A DNA stretch of 64,000 bases, from the NCBI GenBank assembly GCA_017536475.1, contig JAFXHH010000002.1, forward strand, positions 926-64,925. Reading direction: 5' to 3'. The position numbers were made by a program, and so were the translations under genes. The first letter of the stretch is position 1, and each line of letters begins with the position of its first letter. The notes beneath the pieces are model-generated. The model was not told the origin of the DNA and ran no database searches. It saw only the letters and a program-made list of their open reading frames with translations. Positions 1-44,304 of the stretch are shown piece by piece. The DNA is from Clostridia bacterium. GTDB lineage: Bacteria; Bacillota; Clostridia; Oscillospirales; CAG-272.

Positions 1-162
1 ATTGCCGCAGAGCCTGTTGCACGTACTGCCCAAATGGTATCACGGTGAGTTTTCCATAAATCACAGTGAGGATTATGCAAGCAAAATAAGAGAAATCGTC
101 CACGATTGATTTATAAACATATGAAATAAGGAATCAAATTCAAGAATAAGGAGGAAGGGCTT

Positions 163-39345: not shown

Positions 39346-40353
39346 ATGAAAAACAGAATAAAGAAGATCAAAAAATCGATAGGTGATATCCCCGCCGCCC
39401 CCGACGCGAGAGCATTCTTGCCAATATTGCTCGTGACCGTTTGTATGGCGGTCGCATTCTTAGCGGTGATCATCGACAGATTCATCTATCCCTTCGGCAA
39501 AGACCTGCTCTCGCCGATCATAGCGCAGCTTATCGCTATGCTCATCCCCGCATATCTCTGTATGCTCATCCTCTGCCCCGAGAAAAAGCTCTCCGCGCAG
39601 CTTAAGGGAGTAGGTATGGCGAAGATCGGGTACGAATACGTGTTTTTCCTTATCTTCGCTTCCCTTTTTCTCGTATCCACGGCGCTTGTGCTTAATATTA
39701 TTTTCGGCGGAGTCTACGCCTCATCCGAGGGATTTACCCTGCTTGGCGCCTTCACCGCAGGAGAGAACGAATATACCGTAAATACACTCTATCTTATCAT
39801 CGTGTACGCGGTTATTCCCGCAGTCGTCGAGGAGCTGGTGTTCAGAGGGATAGTTTATAGCGAGCTTTCCAAGATAAGCGAAGGACTTGCGTGCTGTGTG
39901 TCCTCACTCTTGTCAGCACTGTTCGCCTTCACGCTCGGAGGATTGCCCGCCGCGTTCTTCTGCGCCCTCGCATATTGCTTTGTCAGATTTACGACGGGCT
40001 CGCTGATCTCGTGCATGATACTGCACTTCATCTATAATCTCTACGGACTGTTTATCAATACGAACGTCTCAAAATATTTCATATCGTCTCAAAACAACGC
40101 CCTGCTGATCGTCATAATAATCGGCGCGTGGCTTGTAAGCACGGCTCTATTCGTGTCCGAGGCGGCAAGAGTATATAGAACGAAGGCGGCAAGAGTGGCA
40201 GACGGAGAAGAAAGCTCACGCGTGCCCAAGATCAAGCGTCAAGAGCTGTTTGGAGAGATCAAAAGCGCGTTTGTATATACTCCTACCCTCGTTTGCGCCA
40301 TCGTTACATTTGCACTCTGTATTGCAATAACGCTTATTGGATTTTTTGCATAA
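39346..40353 (+). CDS. CPBP (CAAX protease / Abi) family intramembrane metalloprotease-like protein
   Basis: PAVVEELVFRG and TGSL..CMILHFIYN motifs; multiple TMs. Confidence 0.8.
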   Translation: MKNRIKKIKKSIGDIPAAPDARAFLPILLVTVCMAVAFLAVIIDRFIYPFGKDLLSPIIAQLIAMLIPAYLCMLILCPEKKLSAQLKGVGMAKIGYEYVFFLIFASLFLVSTALVLNIIFGGVYASSEGFTLLGAFTAGENEYTVNTLYLIIVYAVIPAVVEELVFRGIVYSELSKISEGLACCVSSLLSALFAFTLGGLPAAFFCALAYCFVRFTTGSLISCMILHFIYNLYGLFINTNVSKYFISSQNNALLIVIIIGAWLVSTALFVSEAARVYRTKAARVADGEESSRVPKIKRQELFGEIKSAFVYTPTLVCAIVTFALCIAITLIGFFA

Positions 40354-40581
40354 ATAAAGATCACCACAGACCAATGGAGGCATTTTTGCCCGACATAAGC
40401 CCGTGGTGATCTTGTTTTTTTCGATATCTGAAGCACTTCTTGCAGAGAATTCAACACAAGTCCCCCCAAAGCAACGGTTTTCTCGCCGCAAGCCGAATTC
40501 CAAGCCAAAATCGCCGCCAAAATTTTTAAAACCGCTTGAAAACCAAATAAAAATATGCTATAATGATTCGTACATGAAAAT

Positions 40582-40658
40582 CTACCCGTGGCACAGCTGG
40601 ATAGCGCGTCAGACTCCGACTCTGAAGGTCAACGGTTCAAATCCGTTCGGGTAGGCCA
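40582..40658 (+). tRNA. tRNA-Arg(CCG)
   Basis: Acceptor CTACCCG/CGGGTAG, D-loop AGCTGGATA with A20, anticodon arm TCAGA-CT CCG AC-TCTGA, GTTCAAATC T-loop, encoded CCA; promoter TTGAAA-17 nt-TATAAT at 40536-40564. Confidence 0.93.
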
Positions 40659-40910
40659 AAAGGGAAAGAGGGGCTCGTCCCCTCTTTTCCTTTTGGCTTG
40701 CTCGAAGCGGTACAGAGAAACGTCTCACCACGACCGCAGGTCGTGTGTATGGGTTCTGAATCCGTTCGGCATTTTTTAATGTGCCCTCTTGTATCATTCA
40801 CGGGGCTCGCCCCCTTCTTTAATTTTTTGAGTTATCCGAATGTCAATGAGAATCGTTCACCACAATCGCTTGCGATTGTGCGTATGGGTTCTGAATCCGT
40901 TCGGGTAGGC
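40659..40910 (+). repeat. Two tandem tRNA-Arg 3'-end-derived palindromic units
   Basis: GGTTCTGAATCCGTTCGG at 40752 and GGTTCTGAATCCGTTCGGGTAGGC at 40887, each preceded by CACCAC-hairpin-GTG.GTATG and a degenerate inverted tRNA end. Confidence 0.8.
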
Positions 40911-41047
40911 GCTTGCTTCCCAAATTTTGCGTTCCAAAATCATTCTCCCCTTTTGTTCATGTACTCGTTGCCGAATTTAAAATTTTCAAACACCCCTGCC
41001 AAATTCCCCAAGCACACCGCCTTTCTGTCCTCGGTGTCAAAGTGATG

Positions 41048-41302
41048 TTATTCGCTTTCGTAATAAACATTATAGCAAATTTCTATTCCGAAAAAATATA
41101 TTCCATATCCCTTTTGGTAATATACTCCGCCATTGTTTTCATCGACCATTTCCACATTATAAAGGTACACTTCATATATGGGAATGATTGGTCTTAGATA
41201 TGTCGTCCCGCCGTCCTTTAATTTCTCTGGAACAGGAATTACGCAACTCAGCAGAATGGCTATAAATATACATACGATTACAACTACTTTTCGTTTTTTC
41301 AT
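41048..41302 (-). CDS. Small exported/membrane hypothetical protein (KDGGT motif)
   Basis: N-terminal hydrophobic segment; own TTGACA/TACAAT promoter; AT-rich. Confidence 0.7.
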   Translation of the reverse strand: MKKRKVVVIVCIFIAILLSCVIPVPEKLKDGGTTYLRPIIPIYEVYLYNVEMVDENNGGVYYQKGYGIYFFGIEICYNVYYESE

Positions 41303-41425
41303 AGCCTCACTTCCCTTCTGAATTTATTGTAGCATAGGTTTTACAGAATGTCAACTTCTATTTGACGCGGCAGATACAAAAAAGCCACCCGATTGGGTGG
41401 CTTCTACTTGTGGTTGACTATCGTC

Positions 41426-41845
41426 TTATATGACATTGCTTTTAGAAGAATTCAATTTAACGTGTTTAACAATAGATACGATTTCCAAAATAAAAATTGT
41501 CAAATAATAAGCGTTCCAAATATAAATATTGATTCCAAGACCGCCGCCTACAAATAATGCCATAGGAATCGCACCAATAAGCATAACGGCAAGAACTGAA
41601 TTAAAGATGGGATGGATCTTGCGGAATATCTTTATTACAGATAATACCGCATCTACAAAGTAGAAAATCAAGCTGAAATAGGCAACTATCATTCCCCAAA
41701 ACCAAAGGGCAAAGGAACGGCTAACTCCATCGTCAGTCGGCATTTCGGTTAACATTGCTACTAAAGAAGCGATCATTAATCCAAAACTGACAAGACTGAT
41801 CGCCATAGCAACTATTGCATGAATTTTTATAGATGTTTCTCTCAT
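41426..41845 (-). CDS. Hypothetical 4-TM membrane protein
   Basis: AAAGGTGG RBS; four hydrophobic segments; AT-rich; terminator at about 41379-41403. Confidence 0.7.
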   Translation of the reverse strand: MRETSIKIHAIVAMAISLVSFGLMIASLVAMLTEMPTDDGVSRSFALWFWGMIVAYFSLIFYFVDAVLSVIKIFRKIHPIFNSVLAVMLIGAIPMALFVGGGLGINIYIWNAYYLTIFILEIVSIVKHVKLNSSKSNVI

Positions 41846-41966
41846 ATTTACCACCTTTCTGTTTTTATTATAGCATATATAGTGAAAAAAGTAAAGCTAT
41901 CTATCGTAAATACGGGCAAAAAAACAAATTATGTACAGCAAACCGGTTGTCAATCTCAAACAACAT

Positions 41967-42072
41967 CACAGGGATTCTGAACCTTTACACACGCTTCGCG
42001 TGGTGCAGGATCAGAATCCTCTGTGGCTCGAGCCATAAAAATAGAGCAGCACGATGTGCTGCTCTATTTTTA
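41967..42072 (-). repeat. tRNA-Gln 3'-end-derived palindromic unit plus terminator
   Basis: Minus strand: terminator, inverted tRNA end TGGCTCGAGCCACAGAGGATTCTGATCC, CACCACGC-GAA-GCGTGTGTAAA, direct copy GGTTCAGAATCCCTGTG. Confidence 0.8.
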
Positions 42073-42148
42073 TGGCTGGGGCACAGGGATTCGAACCCCG
42101 GAAATGTCAGAGTCAGAGTCTGATGCCTTACCGCTTGGCGATGCCCCA
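42073..42148 (-). tRNA. tRNA-Gln(CTG)
   Basis: TGGGGCATCGCCAAGCGGTAAGGC..TCAGA-CT CTG AC-TCTGA..GGTTCGAATCC..TGCCCCAGCCA. Confidence 0.95.
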
Positions 42149-42504
42149 AAATATTCCATTGATCTTGACGACCTATGTATTATATCAAAAAGAAATCGGT
42201 TTGTCAATAGCTTTTTCAAAAATTTTTTAAATCTTTTTGCGCTTCCCTATCATTATCTCCCAAAAAATCAAGCTATATTCTCCGAAATCCGCCCCAAATG
42301 CTTGATTTTCATCACCAAAACCCTTAAAAATCAAGCAAAACAGCGCAAAAATTTTCCACAGTTTATCATAAGTTTACATTTACATTATTTTTTCGTTACA
42401 TTTTTTACACTCAATATGGTAAAATAAAAAATGGGTGTGTTTGCACCCAATATAAAAATTTGAAAACAAGTCAACATACGCAAAAAAAATGAAAGGATTA
42501 AAAA

Positions 42505-44304
42505 ATGGGACTTTTTGAAATCTTGGAGCTGGTCTGCGGTCTTGCCCTTTTCCTTTACGGAATGGACGTAATGGGCAATGCGCTCAAAAAGAGCGCAGGA
42601 CGCAAGCTCAAAACCATCTTAGGCAACCTGACCTCAAGCAAGCTCAAGGGCTTCCTGCTCGGTCTCGGTGTCACGGCAATAATCCAGTCCTCCTCCGCTA
42701 CGACCGTAATGGTCGTCGGCTTTGTAAACTCGGGAACAATGCTGCTCTCCCAGGCAATAAGCGTCATTCTCGGAGCAAATCTGGGCACCGCCGTTACCGC
42801 TTGGCTTACCGCGCTTAACAGTCTCGGAAACACTCAGGCCCTATCCGCGATAGCCTTCCTCGACTACCTCACCCCTGACTTCTGGATGCCCATTCTCGCT
42901 ATCATCGGAATAGCATTCATAATGTTCTCAAAAAGAGACAAGCAGAAGGACGTCGGTACGATCCTGGTAGGCTTCGCAGTTCTTATGGTAGGTATGAGCA
43001 CTATGTCGGGTGCGGTCTCGGGACTTAAAAACGACCCCGAATTCGCAAAGATACTCACCATCTTCTCCAACCCCATAATCGGTGTTATTGTCGGTGCCGT
43101 CCTCACCGCGATAGTTCAGTCCTCCTCCGCATCGATCGGTATCCTCCAGGCGCTCTCGGTAACGGGCGGAATCAGCTTTGGTATGGCTATCCCGATCGTC
43201 CTCGGTCAGAATATCGGTACATGTGTAACCGCAATGCTCTCCGCGCTCGGCGCAAACAAGAACGGTAAGAGAACGGCAGTTGCCCACCTCTTCTTCAACG
43301 TCATCGGCGTGATCTTCTGGCTCTCTATGTATTATCTCGTCGGTTGGATCCTCAATCTCGCAGGAGTAATTGATATCTTCCATCTTGCCGAAGCGGCTAT
43401 CGATCCCTTTGGCATTGCCATTGTCCACACCGTCTTCAAGATCCTCGCTGTCGCTCTTATGTGCCCCTTCACCAAGCTCCTCGAAAAGCTCGCGTGCGCT
43501 ATCGTCAAGGGCGACGACAAGAAAGGCGACGAATACACCTCTATGCTTGACGACCGTCTGCTCGACACTCCCTCGGTTGCACTCGACCGTTGCCGTGTTG
43601 TAGCGGCTCATATGGCAGAGCTTTCGATAAACCCCTTAAATCAATCAATATCGCTCCTTGAAAACTACGACAGCAAGGTAGCAGACGAAATACGCGCAGC
43701 CGAAGACAAGGTCGACGTGTATGAGGACGCGCTCGGCTCTTACCTCGTCAAGCTCGCATCTCGCAGCATGTCGGAGGAAGACAGCGCAGAAATAACCAAG
43801 CTTCTCCACATGATAGGCGACCTCGAGCGAATCTCCGACCACTCGGTCAACCTTGTCGAATCCGCAGAGGAGATCAAGGATAAGAACGTCACGTTCTCCG
43901 ATCAGGCAGTGCGTGAGCTTGAAGCTATGTATGGCGCAGTCAGAGAGATCAGTGAGCTGACCGCAGATGCATTCGTCAACACCAATATGGAAAGCGCTCT
44001 CAAGGTAGAGCCTCTTGAGGAGGTAGTAGACGACCTCAAGGATCAGATAAGAATAAACCATATCATCAGAGTGCAGAAGAACCAGTGTACCATCGAGCTT
44101 GGCTTCATTCTTTCGGATATCCTCACCAATCTCGAGCGTGTATCCGACCACTGCTCCAATATCGCAGGATGCCTCATCGAGATCTCCCGTCACCACGACG
44201 CGCTTGACCTCCACAATTATATGCACGAGCTCAAGGAAGCAGAGGGCACTCACTTCAACGAGCAGTACAAGATGTACTCCGACAAGTATTCCATCAATTC
44301 TTAA
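42505..44304 (+). CDS. Na+/Pi cotransporter family protein with PhoU domains
   Basis: Two QSSS motifs, GANLGT / GQNIGT, C-terminal DLERISDH / NLERVSDH PhoU repeats. Confidence 0.93.
   Translation: MGLFEILELVCGLALFLYGMDVMGNALKKSAGRKLKTILGNLTSSKLKGFLLGLGVTAIIQSSSATTVMVVGFVNSGTMLLSQAISVILGANLGTAVTAWLTALNSLGNTQALSAIAFLDYLTPDFWMPILAIIGIAFIMFSKRDKQKDVGTILVGFAVLMVGMSTMSGAVSGLKNDPEFAKILTIFSNPIIGVIVGAVLTAIVQSSSASIGILQALSVTGGISFGMAIPIVLGQNIGTCVTAMLSALGANKNGKRTAVAHLFFNVIGVIFWLSMYYLVGWILNLAGVIDIFHLAEAAIDPFGIAIVHTVFKILAVALMCPFTKLLEKLACAIVKGDDKKGDEYTSMLDDRLLDTPSVALDRCRVVAAHMAELSINPLNQSISLLENYDSKVADEIRAAEDKVDVYEDALGSYLVKLASRSMSEEDSAEITKLLHMIGDLERISDHSVNLVESAEEIKDKNVTFSDQAVRELEAMYGAVREISELTADAFVNTNMESALKVEPLEEVVDDLKDQIRINHIIRVQKNQCTIELGFILSDILTNLERVSDHCSNIAGCLIEISRHHDALDLHNYMHELKEAEGTHFNEQYKMYSDKYSINS

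Follow-up and report, generated by a model that had tools for sequence, protein, structure and literature searches.

Among described systems, the closest in design to the elements considered here are the RtT repeats of Escherichia coli, 178-bp repeats of the tyrT-tyrV operon (Rfam RF00391, gene rttR). Annotation treats RtT as an RNA, which is described as coming from a single repeat unit of the tyrT operon and as a possible modulator of the stringent response; the mentions of it in the literature are brief and describe its mode of action as still unknown. Its features were checked on the E. coli K-12 sequence and on the Rfam RF00391 consensus, and three tandem units plus one additional match upstream were found in the stretch of E. 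coli examined. Hairpin-forming repeats of other kinds also invite comparison. Integron attC sites are imperfect palindromes of 60-140 nt in which the outer helix is conserved, a spacer is unpaired, one arm has unpaired bases and the central hairpin is highly variable; they are arrayed in one orientation, and their inverse core and core follow the consensus RYYYAAC ... GTTRRRY. REP/BIME elements are extragenic palindromes, mobilised by RAYT (Y1) transposases, that form mosaic arrays with alternating arms.

The elements described here lie in a 64,000-nt stretch (the window) of the genome of an uncultured gut bacterium (1,888,409 bases, 1.89 Mb, 98% complete). The original prediction was of a shared palindromic element, its arms taken from the neighbouring tRNA, in three copies at two tRNA genes. 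The copies are real: the pattern CACCAC-N(5-20)-GTGYGTAWRGGTTCWGAATC matches positions 40726-40762 (+), 40858-40897 (+) and 41973-42005 (-), three matches against none in 100 dinucleotide-preserving shuffles of the window. The degenerate inverted copies are equally real (I1, I2 and I(Gln) in Table 1), and the inner hairpins of the three copies differ in sequence while maintaining their pairing, both as had been predicted. Each unit folds as a rod. Exact matches to the pattern in the whole genome number just these three. The count of copies was nevertheless an undercount, as a covariance model built from the three window copies gives 21 matches genome-wide at a cut-off of E<=0.001.

Table 1. 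Features of the tRNA-Arg(CCG) and tRNA-Gln(CTG) loci in the window, in order of position
Feature	Position	Strand	Basis
Promoter-like site of tRNA-Arg(CCG)	40536-40564	+	promoter scan
tRNA-Arg(CCG) gene, encoded CCA	40582..40658	+	ARAGORN; Rfam tRNA 58.2 bits
Intrinsic terminator hairpin after tRNA-Arg, A-tract/T-tract flanks	40659..40694	+	terminator scan, sequence
I1, degenerate reverse-complement copy of tRNA-Arg T-arm and acceptor 3' strand	40694..40725	+	sequence, fold
hp1, central hairpin, GCA loop, single bulged T near base	40726..40749	+	fold, pattern match; pairing backed by covariation (65 aligned hits)
D1, direct tRNA-Arg copy, G52/G53 into acceptor 3' strand	40752..40769	+	sequence; adjacent tRNA 1st of 37
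Second terminator hairpin relic, GGGGCTCG-CCCC core as in first terminator	40802..40829	+	read from sequence
I2, degenerate inverted copy of unit 2	40830..40857	+	fold; adjacent tRNA 1st, one tie
hp2, unit 2 central hairpin, bulged C	40858..40884	+	fold, pattern match
D2, direct tRNA-Arg copy, G52/G53 to first C of CCA	40887..40910	+	adjacent tRNA 1st of 37, score 15/17
D(Gln), direct tRNA-Gln copy, G52/G53 to two bases inside acceptor 3' strand	41967..41983	-	adjacent tRNA 1st of 37
hp(Gln), central hairpin, GAA loop, bulged T	41986..42005	-	fold, pattern match
I(Gln), inverted copy of tRNA-Gln 3' end	42006..42037	-	fold; adjacent tRNA 1st, two ties
Terminator hairpin after tRNA-Gln, symmetric A-tract/T-tract	42036..42072	-	sequence
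tRNA-Gln(CTG) gene	42073..42148	-	ARAGORN, Rfam
Promoter-like site of tRNA-Gln(CTG)	42207-42179	-	promoter scan

Units share the strand of the tRNA and are located immediately beyond the terminator that closes a tRNA or tmRNA transcription unit. In each, the first part (I) corresponds, in reverse complement, to about positions 49-76 of the tRNA; the second (hp) is a central hairpin of variable sequence but retained pairing; the third (D) is a direct copy running from G52/G53 through the T-loop and beyond, and an additional A/T or a whole hairpin usually interrupts the copied T-loop. Because I pairs with D, a rod forms in which the T-loop look-alike is buried. The copies stand 80-130 nt from the tRNA with no intervening ORF and occur singly or as two to four in tandem, in most cases with no ORF between units; in a minority D extends through NCCA and is followed by a terminator of its own.

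At the tRNA-Arg locus the A-tract and T-tract that flank the terminator allow it to be extended, by joining with the tRNA 3' end and I1, into a long palindrome, and such extended pairing was seen in the Rfam-search alignment. The microRNA-like rows returned by Rfam reflect this long palindrome, with scores far below gathering. I1 begins with TGG, the complement of CCA, and the adjacent tRNA-Arg ranked third of 37 candidate tails in alignment. In the T-loop of D1, TG replaces A (extra base at 40757), and the copy stops after CGG; the T-loop of D2 is 8 nt long, with the extra base at 40892. The stem sequences of hp1 and hp2 differ and the base of the two hairpins is identical. D(Gln) has an extra A after TTC, and I(Gln) includes the complement of this extra base, so that the two arms pair nearly perfectly. 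ARAGORN and Rfam call only the two real tRNAs in the window, and neither there nor in 20 unit-holding loci is a unit called as a tRNA.

RtT and the units described here have a design in common. Both stand in tandem directly 3' of a tRNA gene and on its strand, and both finish with the 3' end of the tRNA copied in direct orientation (18 nt up to and including CCA in E. coli) and with its T-loop interrupted; an upstream reverse-complement segment (in E. coli a 10-nt arm, which the Rfam consensus shows paired to the tail copied from tRNA-Tyr) pairs with this copied tail and closes a hairpin-rich rod; and neither encodes a conserved protein. In other respects they diverge. RtT serves one tRNA (Tyr), whereas the units accompany tmRNA and no fewer than 17 tRNA species and match the particular gene they follow, and an intrinsic terminator separates tRNA from unit, unlike in RtT. 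The T-loop is broken by 1 nt after C56 here and by 68 nt after A58 in E. coli, the units measure 77-95 nt against 178 bp, and their copied tail, in contrast to the 18-nt tail of RtT, is complete through CCA in just 8 of 59 units. E. coli RtT additionally copies the T-stem 5' strand and holds the small tpr ORF. The RF00391 model, which scores the E. coli K-12 units at 132.9-137.5 bits as a positive control, finds no match even at E<=10 in positions 39500-43500 of the window, and none at its gathering score of 45 bits in 20 unit-holding loci; nor does any other Rfam family match the units in either set. A search of the main-text literature found no description of such tRNA-tail elements. The original prediction, which a match to an already described REP or att-site family would have overturned, is half affected: the element has no match by sequence, whereas by architecture the E. 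coli repeats fit. We assign it with considerable confidence to the RtT class as an architecture shared by design, without sequence or model similarity.

The same core recurs through the genome and the genus. By hand count, units stand behind 19 of the 27 assessable tRNA/tmRNA transcription-unit ends of this genome. Among 59 non-overlapping model matches, 47 have a tRNA or tmRNA on the same strand within 450 nt upstream and none has one on the opposite strand only; a further two lie at contig ends, and six of the remaining ten are preceded by a partial tRNA 3' end or the end of a recombinase gene, plus a terminator. The model finds matches in 29 of 36 other species of the genus, in 2 of 140 other genomes of the family (97 genera) and in 1 of 24 other families of the order. 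Three of four inspected genus members that had scored as negative hold a variant with the same I and the same D, including the extra base, and with two central hairpins.

The arms follow the neighbouring tRNA or tmRNA far above chance. When each arm of 21 units was aligned to 37 candidate tails, the adjacent tRNA gave the best match for D in 12 units and for I in 14, and the predicted derivation of the arms from the neighbouring gene therefore extends beyond the window. The D tails of the tRNA-Arg(ACG) and tmRNA units, on the other hand, have a common sequence that mismatches their own tRNA. The T-loop expansion had been predicted for every direct copy; it is present in all three of the window, but not across the family. 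Where the upstream tRNA is known (47 units), the commonest state is a clean insertion of 1 nt after TTC (27 units: 15 T, 11 A, 1 G); three units combine an insertion with a substitution, one has a substitution alone, seven lack the insertion and nine are complex, including a whole hairpin inserted at the post-TTC site. The extra base is bulged in 22 of 59 units. One unit (G000:C7:89395) gave by eye the impression of a displaced tRNA-Leu(TAG) trailer, and the alignment test did not single out that tRNA.

Covariation, computed on 65 aligned hits with shuffled controls, indicates that pairing is maintained across the units. Paired cells make up 93.7% against 74.9% in shuffles, cells changed on both sides number 160 against 44, and pairing falls to 20-52% when the partner is shifted by 1-3 columns. 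The middle stem persists in 91% of cells and has a sense-strand bias (G.T 51, A.C 8), although this G.T excess is confounded, the G side being fixed by the tRNA copy and C-to-T being the commonest mutation. The central hairpin has no wobble enrichment (G.T 8, A.C 6 and 22 other mismatches in 531 scored cells), its covariation consists mainly of swaps from A-T to T-A or C-G, and in this it resembles a DNA palindrome more than the usual RNA helix. Pairing in the outer arm is frequently lost; since CCA too is kept in so few D arms (8/59), a tRNA-like acceptor end cannot be essential.

In our preferred reading the units are a new genus-wide family of RtT-like tRNA trailers that may act as a structured trailer RNA of the sense strand, and we judge this reading as a whole about equally likely to be right or wrong. 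A unit would have originated when the tRNA 3' end was partially duplicated, in inverted and in direct orientation, about the terminator palindrome; arrays would then expand and contract as the tRNA end and D recombine in the ordinary unequal or slipped manner (one array junction carries microhomology), and templated correction across the palindromes may keep the arms fitted to the neighbouring tRNA. The part under constraint would be the conserved middle, comprising the T-loop complement, the hairpin base and AAAGG-GTTC-W-GA. An intrinsic terminator precedes every first unit and the promoter scan found no promoter-like site within the units of the window, so that RNA could be made by read-through only. 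Read-through from the strong tRNA promoter would, by analogy with E. coli RtT, yield a structured non-coding trailer RNA of the sense strand, with I antisense to the tRNA tail and D as its decoy; this RNA could either be freed by the tRNA-processing enzymes or tag read-through transcripts for double-strand-specific cleavage. That the units act as RNA, a proposal that leans on this analogy, we rate a little short of an even chance.

The predicted folds bear on this last step. When read-through transcripts were folded for minimum free energy, I paired with the genuine tRNA tail, and 9 of 10 loci lost the acceptor stem if D was left out. These folds are compatible with a putative cis-antisense role in pre-tRNA processing, one of three candidate functions put forward in the original prediction. 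D was also considered as a protector of the tRNA against I, which the same folds do not support: the acceptor stem is lost at 8 of 10 loci even with D, and in such models D does not obviously protect the tRNA.

A second explanation, unlikely but one that deserves to be taken seriously, is that the units are a non-autonomous, DNA-level selfish palindromic element without RNA function. Such an element would home to the tRNA T-loop or 3' flank, or spread by gene conversion via conserved T-loop-like flanks, and its hairpins would matter as single-stranded DNA on the lagging-strand template. The occurrence of one core behind so many tRNA species and tmRNA points in this direction, as do the evolution of the central hairpin as a near-perfect DNA palindrome without G.U intermediates and the resemblance of the D tail of the tRNA-Arg(ACG) unit to that of the tmRNA unit rather than to its own tRNA. 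Dead copies hold extra hairpin modules nested at fixed tRNA-loop positions: behind C56, behind C61, within the variable loop in a pseudo-tRNA-Thr and within the anticodon loop in a pseudo-tRNA-fMet. A terminator loop is inverted between close relatives, a template-switch signature, and one array junction has microhomology.

The enzymes of known mobile elements, however, are missing from the 98%-complete genome. Searches found no Y1 transposase (PF01797, 0 matches; the control matched in 6 of 14 genomes), no TnpB (PF07282, 0 matches; control matched in 8 of 14), no reverse transcriptase and no small GIY-YIG nuclease, the sole match to the latter being a 613-aa, UvrC-sized protein. Nor was there a match to Y2/IS91, for which the control likewise matched nowhere; IS91 targets GTTC. 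The Y1/RAYT-mobilised element of the original prediction thus loses its transposase. Like REP/BIME, the units are short hairpin repeats at the 3' ends of transcription units, in mosaic arrays with alternating arm orientation, but they are found almost only behind tRNA/tmRNA genes rather than dispersed, their arms are locus-specific, and derivatives of IS200/IS605 and TnpB guide RNAs likewise lack a partner here, with neither TnpA (Y1) nor TnpB encoded. Orientation relative to the tRNA is invariant, no empty or filled site with element-like ends is documented, and units are kept at the same tRNAs across dozens of species, a retention that suggests constraint rather than turnover.

A third explanation, which we regard as improbable, holds that the units are hairpin recombination or landing sites, comparable to integron attC or to a folded single-strand Xer site, at which small accessory-gene islets and islands would dock or be swapped without breaking the tRNA. 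The likeness to attC is appreciable: the units are imperfect palindromes within the same size range, and they too have a conserved outer helix and an unpaired spacer, along with unpaired bases on one arm (the extra T-loop base where it is bulged, and a 1-nt bulge in the hairpin), a variable centre and arrays in one orientation. The 3' box, however, reads GGTTC-W-GA(W)TCC, so that the D start, GGTTC-W-GA, misfits the attC core, having C rather than a purine as fourth base after G; the arms are copied from the neighbouring tRNA, and most units have neither cassettes nor other ORFs between them. No integron integrase was found in the genome: the one PF00589 match, which is Xer-like and the only tyrosine recombinase, scores 79 and 47.5 bits with the integron models against cut-offs of 265 and 435. 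A tyrosine-integrase att site, as originally envisaged, is unlikely with this enzyme set; moreover, the copies are no more than 80-130 nt away from the tRNA, and in most of them the loop where crossover would occur has gained a base.

Accessory DNA does occur at the units. One relative has a 1.24-kb insert with two small ORFs, flanked by a duplication of about 125 bp of terminator and unit, although flanks of this length suffice for ordinary homologous recombination. The gene for an accessory membrane protein, patchily distributed (7 of 39 genus genomes), follows tRNA-Gln units in two genomes and tRNA-Cys arrays in three, and islands with one family of large serine recombinase adjoin terminator and units in four. 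The genome under study encodes two large serine recombinases. The recombinase beside one unit was considered as the cognate enzyme and rejected: it belongs to a patchy island family, occurs in 13 of 39 genus genomes and is present at 95% identity in a unit-free genome, and it is therefore not the enzyme of the units. The boldest form of the docking idea, decidedly improbable in our estimate, is that the trailers serve as recombination sites in folded single-stranded form, giving each tRNA gene a platform for safe docking and amounting to an integron-like cassette system built on tRNA 3' ends. Were it true, small accessory-gene islets and serine-recombinase islands would be captured and exchanged at or beside the units with the tRNA unbroken, and E. 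coli RtT would be a member of the same class.

The view that the units are attR-type scars of integrase-mediated insertion and decayed islands, or neutral duplication debris, is largely refuted already and has only the slimmest chance of being correct: a direct repeat of the 3' part of a tRNA downstream of the intact gene is, as in attL/attR copies, a well-known integration product (PMC9897764), genuine islands of the genus use these tRNA ends, and distal units are frequently truncated or interrupted, but no island or integrase lies between the repeats, and the view leaves unexplained the reverse-complement copy, the conserved hairpin with its compensatory changes, the recurrent extra base at one T-loop position (30 of 47 copies), the 80-130 nt spacing, the conservation in 29 of 36 species and the occupation of 19 of 27 transcription-unit ends despite a single tyrosine recombinase. 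Partial tRNA copies close behind tRNA genes are thus not automatically integrase scars.

RtT has been described, in the brief accounts available, for one E. coli repeat unit, whereas here the same design stands behind about twenty tRNA/tmRNA genes in dozens of species. Being repeated across many tRNAs and species, the design forms a natural set of replicates, which separates the parts that follow the tRNA (the arms) from those that are constant (the T-loop complement, the hairpin base and the broken T-loop), and the resulting rules on constant and variable parts can guide experiments in E. coli. The question is also raised whether the 3' flanks of tRNA genes are home to widespread, uncatalogued structured elements tied to tRNA processing or to genome plasticity. 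As to the real islands of the genus that use these tRNA ends, they sit beside the units and not inside them.

Directly 3' of each tRNA in the window lies a terminator hairpin with an A-tract/T-tract, and a sequence check defines the unit that follows it on the same strand. An inverted arm (I) reproduces the tRNA 3' end as a degenerate reverse complement and begins with TGG, the complement of CCA; a central hairpin with a 1-nt bulge near its base succeeds it, and the last part is a direct copy (D) of tRNA sequence from G52/G53 on, in which the T-loop has 8 nt. The predicted fold of every window unit is a rod with I paired to D. tRNA-Arg(CCG) carries two units, the second preceded by a terminator relic that has the core GGGGCTCG-CCCC in common with the first terminator. 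The three copies of the original prediction are borne out: its pattern, CACCAC-N(5-20) with a fixed 3' sequence, has three exact matches in the window, none in 100 dinucleotide-preserving shuffles of it, and no others in the whole genome (1,888,409 bases, 28 contigs).

Positions of the features discussed (plain numbers, window; G000:Cn, contig n of the source genome; L, locus stretch from the source genome or a relative)
Feature	Position	Strand	Basis
tRNA-Arg(CCG)	40582-40658	+	ARAGORN
Pattern match 1	40726-40762	+	exact match
Pattern match 2	40858-40897	+	exact match
Small membrane protein gene (142-aa product), between the window's two arrays	41426-41854	-	
Extended ribosome-binding stretch (also L007, L008, L036)	41860-41875	-	
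Pattern match 3	41973-42005	-	exact match
tRNA-Gln(CTG)	42073-42148	-	ARAGORN
Inverted terminator loop	L016 about 245-265 vs L022 about 112-130		sequence comparison
1.24-kb insert, relative	L022:222-1460		
~11-kb stretch after tRNA-Leu(TAG) (L041, outside window)	G000:C7:78218-90416		
tRNA-Ser(GCT) and tRNA-Ser(GGA) trailers (L017, L018)	G000:C27:10080-10400; C28:400-651		
tRNA-Thr(GGT) with dead copy (L008)	G000:C13:95877-96034		
Partial initiator tRNA-Met copy	G000:C13:196427-196700		
Two-hairpin module	G000:C16:93873-93916; C28:82661-82710; C13:207870-207920; C8:41470-41517		
GGGTTTAGAACCC repeat	G000:C3:20682-20756; C18:4056-4131		

Real as these copies are, the element is genome-wide, not local to two tRNAs. 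A covariance model built on alignment A1 (16 simple units) has 30 matches in the genome at E<=1, of which 21 reach E<=0.001. In a strict string test the T-loop-to-3' segment of each of 38 ARAGORN calls was sought again downstream, and was found repeated after 17 genes; two of these matches are something other than the gene's own trailer unit (the next tRNA gene for tRNA-Leu(GAG), a pseudo-tRNA copy for tRNA-Thr(GGT)), and tRNA-Arg(CCG) escapes the test because of its A-to-TG change. The flanks were also inspected by eye. After exclusion of 8 cluster-internal genes, 2 genes at contig ends and a single doubtful ARAGORN call, 27 transcription-unit ends were counted, 19 of them with a unit that includes a D copy (one lies 11 kb off, beyond an island). 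The others are two tRNA-Ser ends with an inverted copy and a different module, Thr-GGT with its pseudo-tRNA copy, Val-GAC with a degenerate unit lacking D, and four bare ends (fMet, Leu-TAA, Pro-GGG, Pro-TGG). tmRNA also carries a unit.

The different module is common to both tRNA-Ser trailers and reads GAGAGGGAGAA ... CGCCGCCGGTGGCGGA ... GAGTGGCA, downstream of a long stretch in which the tRNA 3' half is copied in inverted form. At tRNA-Thr(GGT), the gene and its terminator are followed by a dead whole-tRNA copy, whose acceptor stem is broken and whose variable region contains a ~46-nt hairpin module, and then by the same terminator again. An unrelated repeat with GGGTTTAGAACCC occurs twice, its flanks conserved for >100 nt and no tRNA genes adjoining; both copies are weak model matches (E 0.006 and 0.87).

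Position and orientation were assessed by a model search of 42 sources (the window, 20 source-genome loci, 19 relatives' loci and 2 further stretches), which gave 65 matches, 59 of them non-overlapping. A same-strand tRNA or tmRNA gene lies at most 450 nt upstream in 47 of the 59, and in none is an opposite-strand gene of this kind alone upstream; two matches are at contig ends. Ten matches are without an upstream tRNA gene. These follow a partial tRNA 3' end beyond a 1.24-kb insert (two), a recombinase gene end and terminator (one in the source genome, two in a relative), a displaced tRNA-Leu 3' fragment and terminator (one), or an ORF or terminator (three); the last is an inverted tRNA-Ser copy read on the opposite strand.

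The arms fit the neighbouring gene, as originally claimed. When the region past the T-loop look-alike was aligned to the last 17 nt of 37 tRNA/tmRNA genes, the adjacent gene ranked top for D in 12 of 21 source-genome units; the reverse-complemented 5' arm, compared with the same 37 tails, gave 14 of 21 for I, against a chance expectation of about 0.6. Units that fail are mostly distal, with nested inserts, and the D tails behind tRNA-Arg(ACG) and tmRNA are alike each other and unlike their own genes.

The 8-nt T-loop ascribed to every copy is found in the window units but does not extend to all 47 units whose tRNA is known. In 27 a single nucleotide is cleanly inserted after TTC (15 T, 11 A, 1 G) and in 3 an insertion is combined with a substitution; 7 lack the insertion, 1 has a substitution alone and 9 are complex, five of these with a ~20-nt hairpin at exactly the same site. 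Where I preserves an exact complement of the native 7-nt loop, as in 22 of 59 units, the extra base bulges out of the I:D helix; in 3 units the helix runs on unbulged, and in 34 it does not continue. Larger insertions were also seen. A two-hairpin module (TTAC GTTCGC...GCTCAC...CGAGTTTTGC-loop-GCAAAAC-G-TCG) lies within D copies of four different tRNAs at an identical point, after the first base of the T-stem 3' strand, and its second hairpin recurs in the tRNA-His trailer in opposite orientation. Upstream of the initiator tRNA-Met gene is a partial 5' copy of it that includes 8 leader bases and stops at the anticodon loop; ~230 nt of hairpin modules, plus a degenerate T-arm, come next.

The units constitute a new family, restricted to the genus, that follows the plan of the E. 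coli tyrT operon repeat, RtT. In E. coli K-12, RF00391 recognises a tandem run of three units after tyrV and one more unit upstream (133-137 bits). The E. coli unit has a 10-nt exact reverse complement of the tRNA-Tyr T-loop end, T-stem and first acceptor bases, which pairs with these in the Rfam consensus. After it the T-stem and the beginning of the T-loop are copied directly, 68 nt rich in hairpins are inserted, and the tRNA's last 18 nt, CCA included, close the unit. Both kinds thus have an inverted arm, hairpins, a direct tail copy broken in the T-loop, tandem arrangement and the strand of the tRNA. A described family is matched in architecture but not in membership, the units here falling outside RF00391 by the Rfam model. 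Unlike RtT, they have an intrinsic terminator before each unit, a T-loop break of 1 nt rather than 68 nt, and arms that match a variety of tRNAs. PMC3318445 places rttR within one tyrT-operon repeat unit, and a preprint (bioRxiv 10.1101/2024.07.17.603846) describes it as thought to act in transcript processing and the stringent response, its mode of action unknown. The RtT kind is already known but poorly understood, and the family described here, though carried by an uncultured organism, supplies naturally replicated cases for this long-standing question.

Among relatives, the model has matches in 29 of 36 further species of the genus (at most 28 in any one genome), 1 of 24 other families of the order, and 2 of 140 other genomes (97 genera) drawn evenly from the family, one of the two being of the same genus. 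At the tRNA-Met/Glu locus of four model-negative genus members, three have a variant that keeps I and D, extra base included, around two central hairpins, and the fourth has a plain terminator. Fifteen stretches of a species-representative genome collection contain a 22-letter core motif, all in records titled uncultured Eubacteriales, Oscillospiraceae or Clostridia bacteria.

The tRNA tail, terminator and I would form one long palindrome, and I, hairpin and D a second; two chained palindromes suggest fold-back or template-switch copying. The terminator loop after tRNA-Glu(TTC) is inverted between close relatives (AACAGAAAGTT vs AACTTTCGGTT), a signature of template switching within a palindrome. 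Arrays may grow by unequal recombination between tRNA tail and D; the junction of the tRNA-Arg(CCT) tandem array is at CAAA microhomology.

The favoured reading, drawn from the analogy to RtT, is that the unit would be a read-through trailer RNA, bearing antisense and decoy of the tRNA tail. A promoter scan found clear promoters for the window tRNAs and no promoter-like sites inside the window units. In minimum-free-energy folds of read-through transcripts, I is predicted to invade the real tRNA tail, with the acceptor stem lost at 9 of 10 loci when D is left out and at 8 of 10 when it is included. Because I is predicted to displace acceptor stem pairing, read-through transcripts might form long duplexes and so be removed or processed. 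The conserved part of the unit comprises the T-loop complement, hairpin base and broken T-loop, for which reason the middle helix is probably its functional heart.

Pairing is kept while the hairpins vary, as predicted, and stems at orthologous tRNAs show paired changes between species. In the 65-hit alignment, whose fit to the model favours structure, standard pairs fill 93.7% of cells (74.9% when shuffled), 160 cells are changed on both sides (44 shuffled), and sliding the 3' partner by 1-3 columns drops pairing to 20-52%. The middle stem (I-arm GAAYY : D-arm GGTTC; 220 Watson-Crick, 51 G.T, 8 A.C, 15 other mismatches) suggests that the structured strand is the tRNA-sense one, an indication confounded because the tRNA copy fixes the G side. 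The central hairpin (495 Watson-Crick, 8 G.T, 6 A.C, 22 other mismatches) has no wobble excess, and covaries mostly by swaps of A-T to T-A or C-G; it is more like a DNA palindrome than a typical RNA helix. A DNA-level reading, as selfish palindrome or hairpin recombination site, is live beside that of a trailer RNA.

The units as landing pads are kept alive by what lies beside them (recombinase islands, the 1.24-kb insert and an accessory membrane protein gene), but the island and islet observations are also compatible with ordinary homologous recombination. In four genomes a recombinase gene ends directly against terminator and units, which places the insertion point of the serine-recombinase islands at tRNA 3' ends and upstream of the trailer. 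The ~11-kb stretch holds McrBC-like genes, an S24 peptidase/repressor and a 526-aa large serine recombinase, whose gene's conserved end (...GCACCA) adjoins terminator and unit, as does that of a 54%-identical homologue in another species; the arm-matching test did not confirm the unit beyond as the displaced tRNA-Leu(TAG) trailer. The large serine recombinase was rejected as the trailer's enzyme, being patchy (13 of 39 genus genomes) and present at 95% identity in a unit-free genome. The 1.24-kb insert, behind tRNA-Glu(TTC), contains two small ORFs, one lipoprotein-like by eye, and lies between directly duplicated ~125-bp copies of terminator and unit; a partial, interrupted tRNA 3' end stands at its right junction. 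The gene for the 142-aa membrane protein (7 of 39 genus genomes) follows tRNA-Gln units in two genomes and tRNA-Cys arrays in three, and in one it lies between convergent units.

The integrase/att reading is not supported, the proposed co-occurrence check returning one tyrosine recombinase, of Xer type and far under the integron-integrase cut-offs. No mobile-element enzyme that fits was found: searches of the genome (98.3% complete) gave no Y1 transposase, TnpB or reverse transcriptase and no GIY-YIG protein other than a UvrC-sized one, and the genome has two large serine recombinases; the Y2 search carries no weight, its positive control having matched nowhere. Genes just 3' of several arrays share an extended ribosome-binding stretch, AGAAAGGCGGTG or AGAAAGGTGGT, which may be the organism's strong Shine-Dalgarno sequence.
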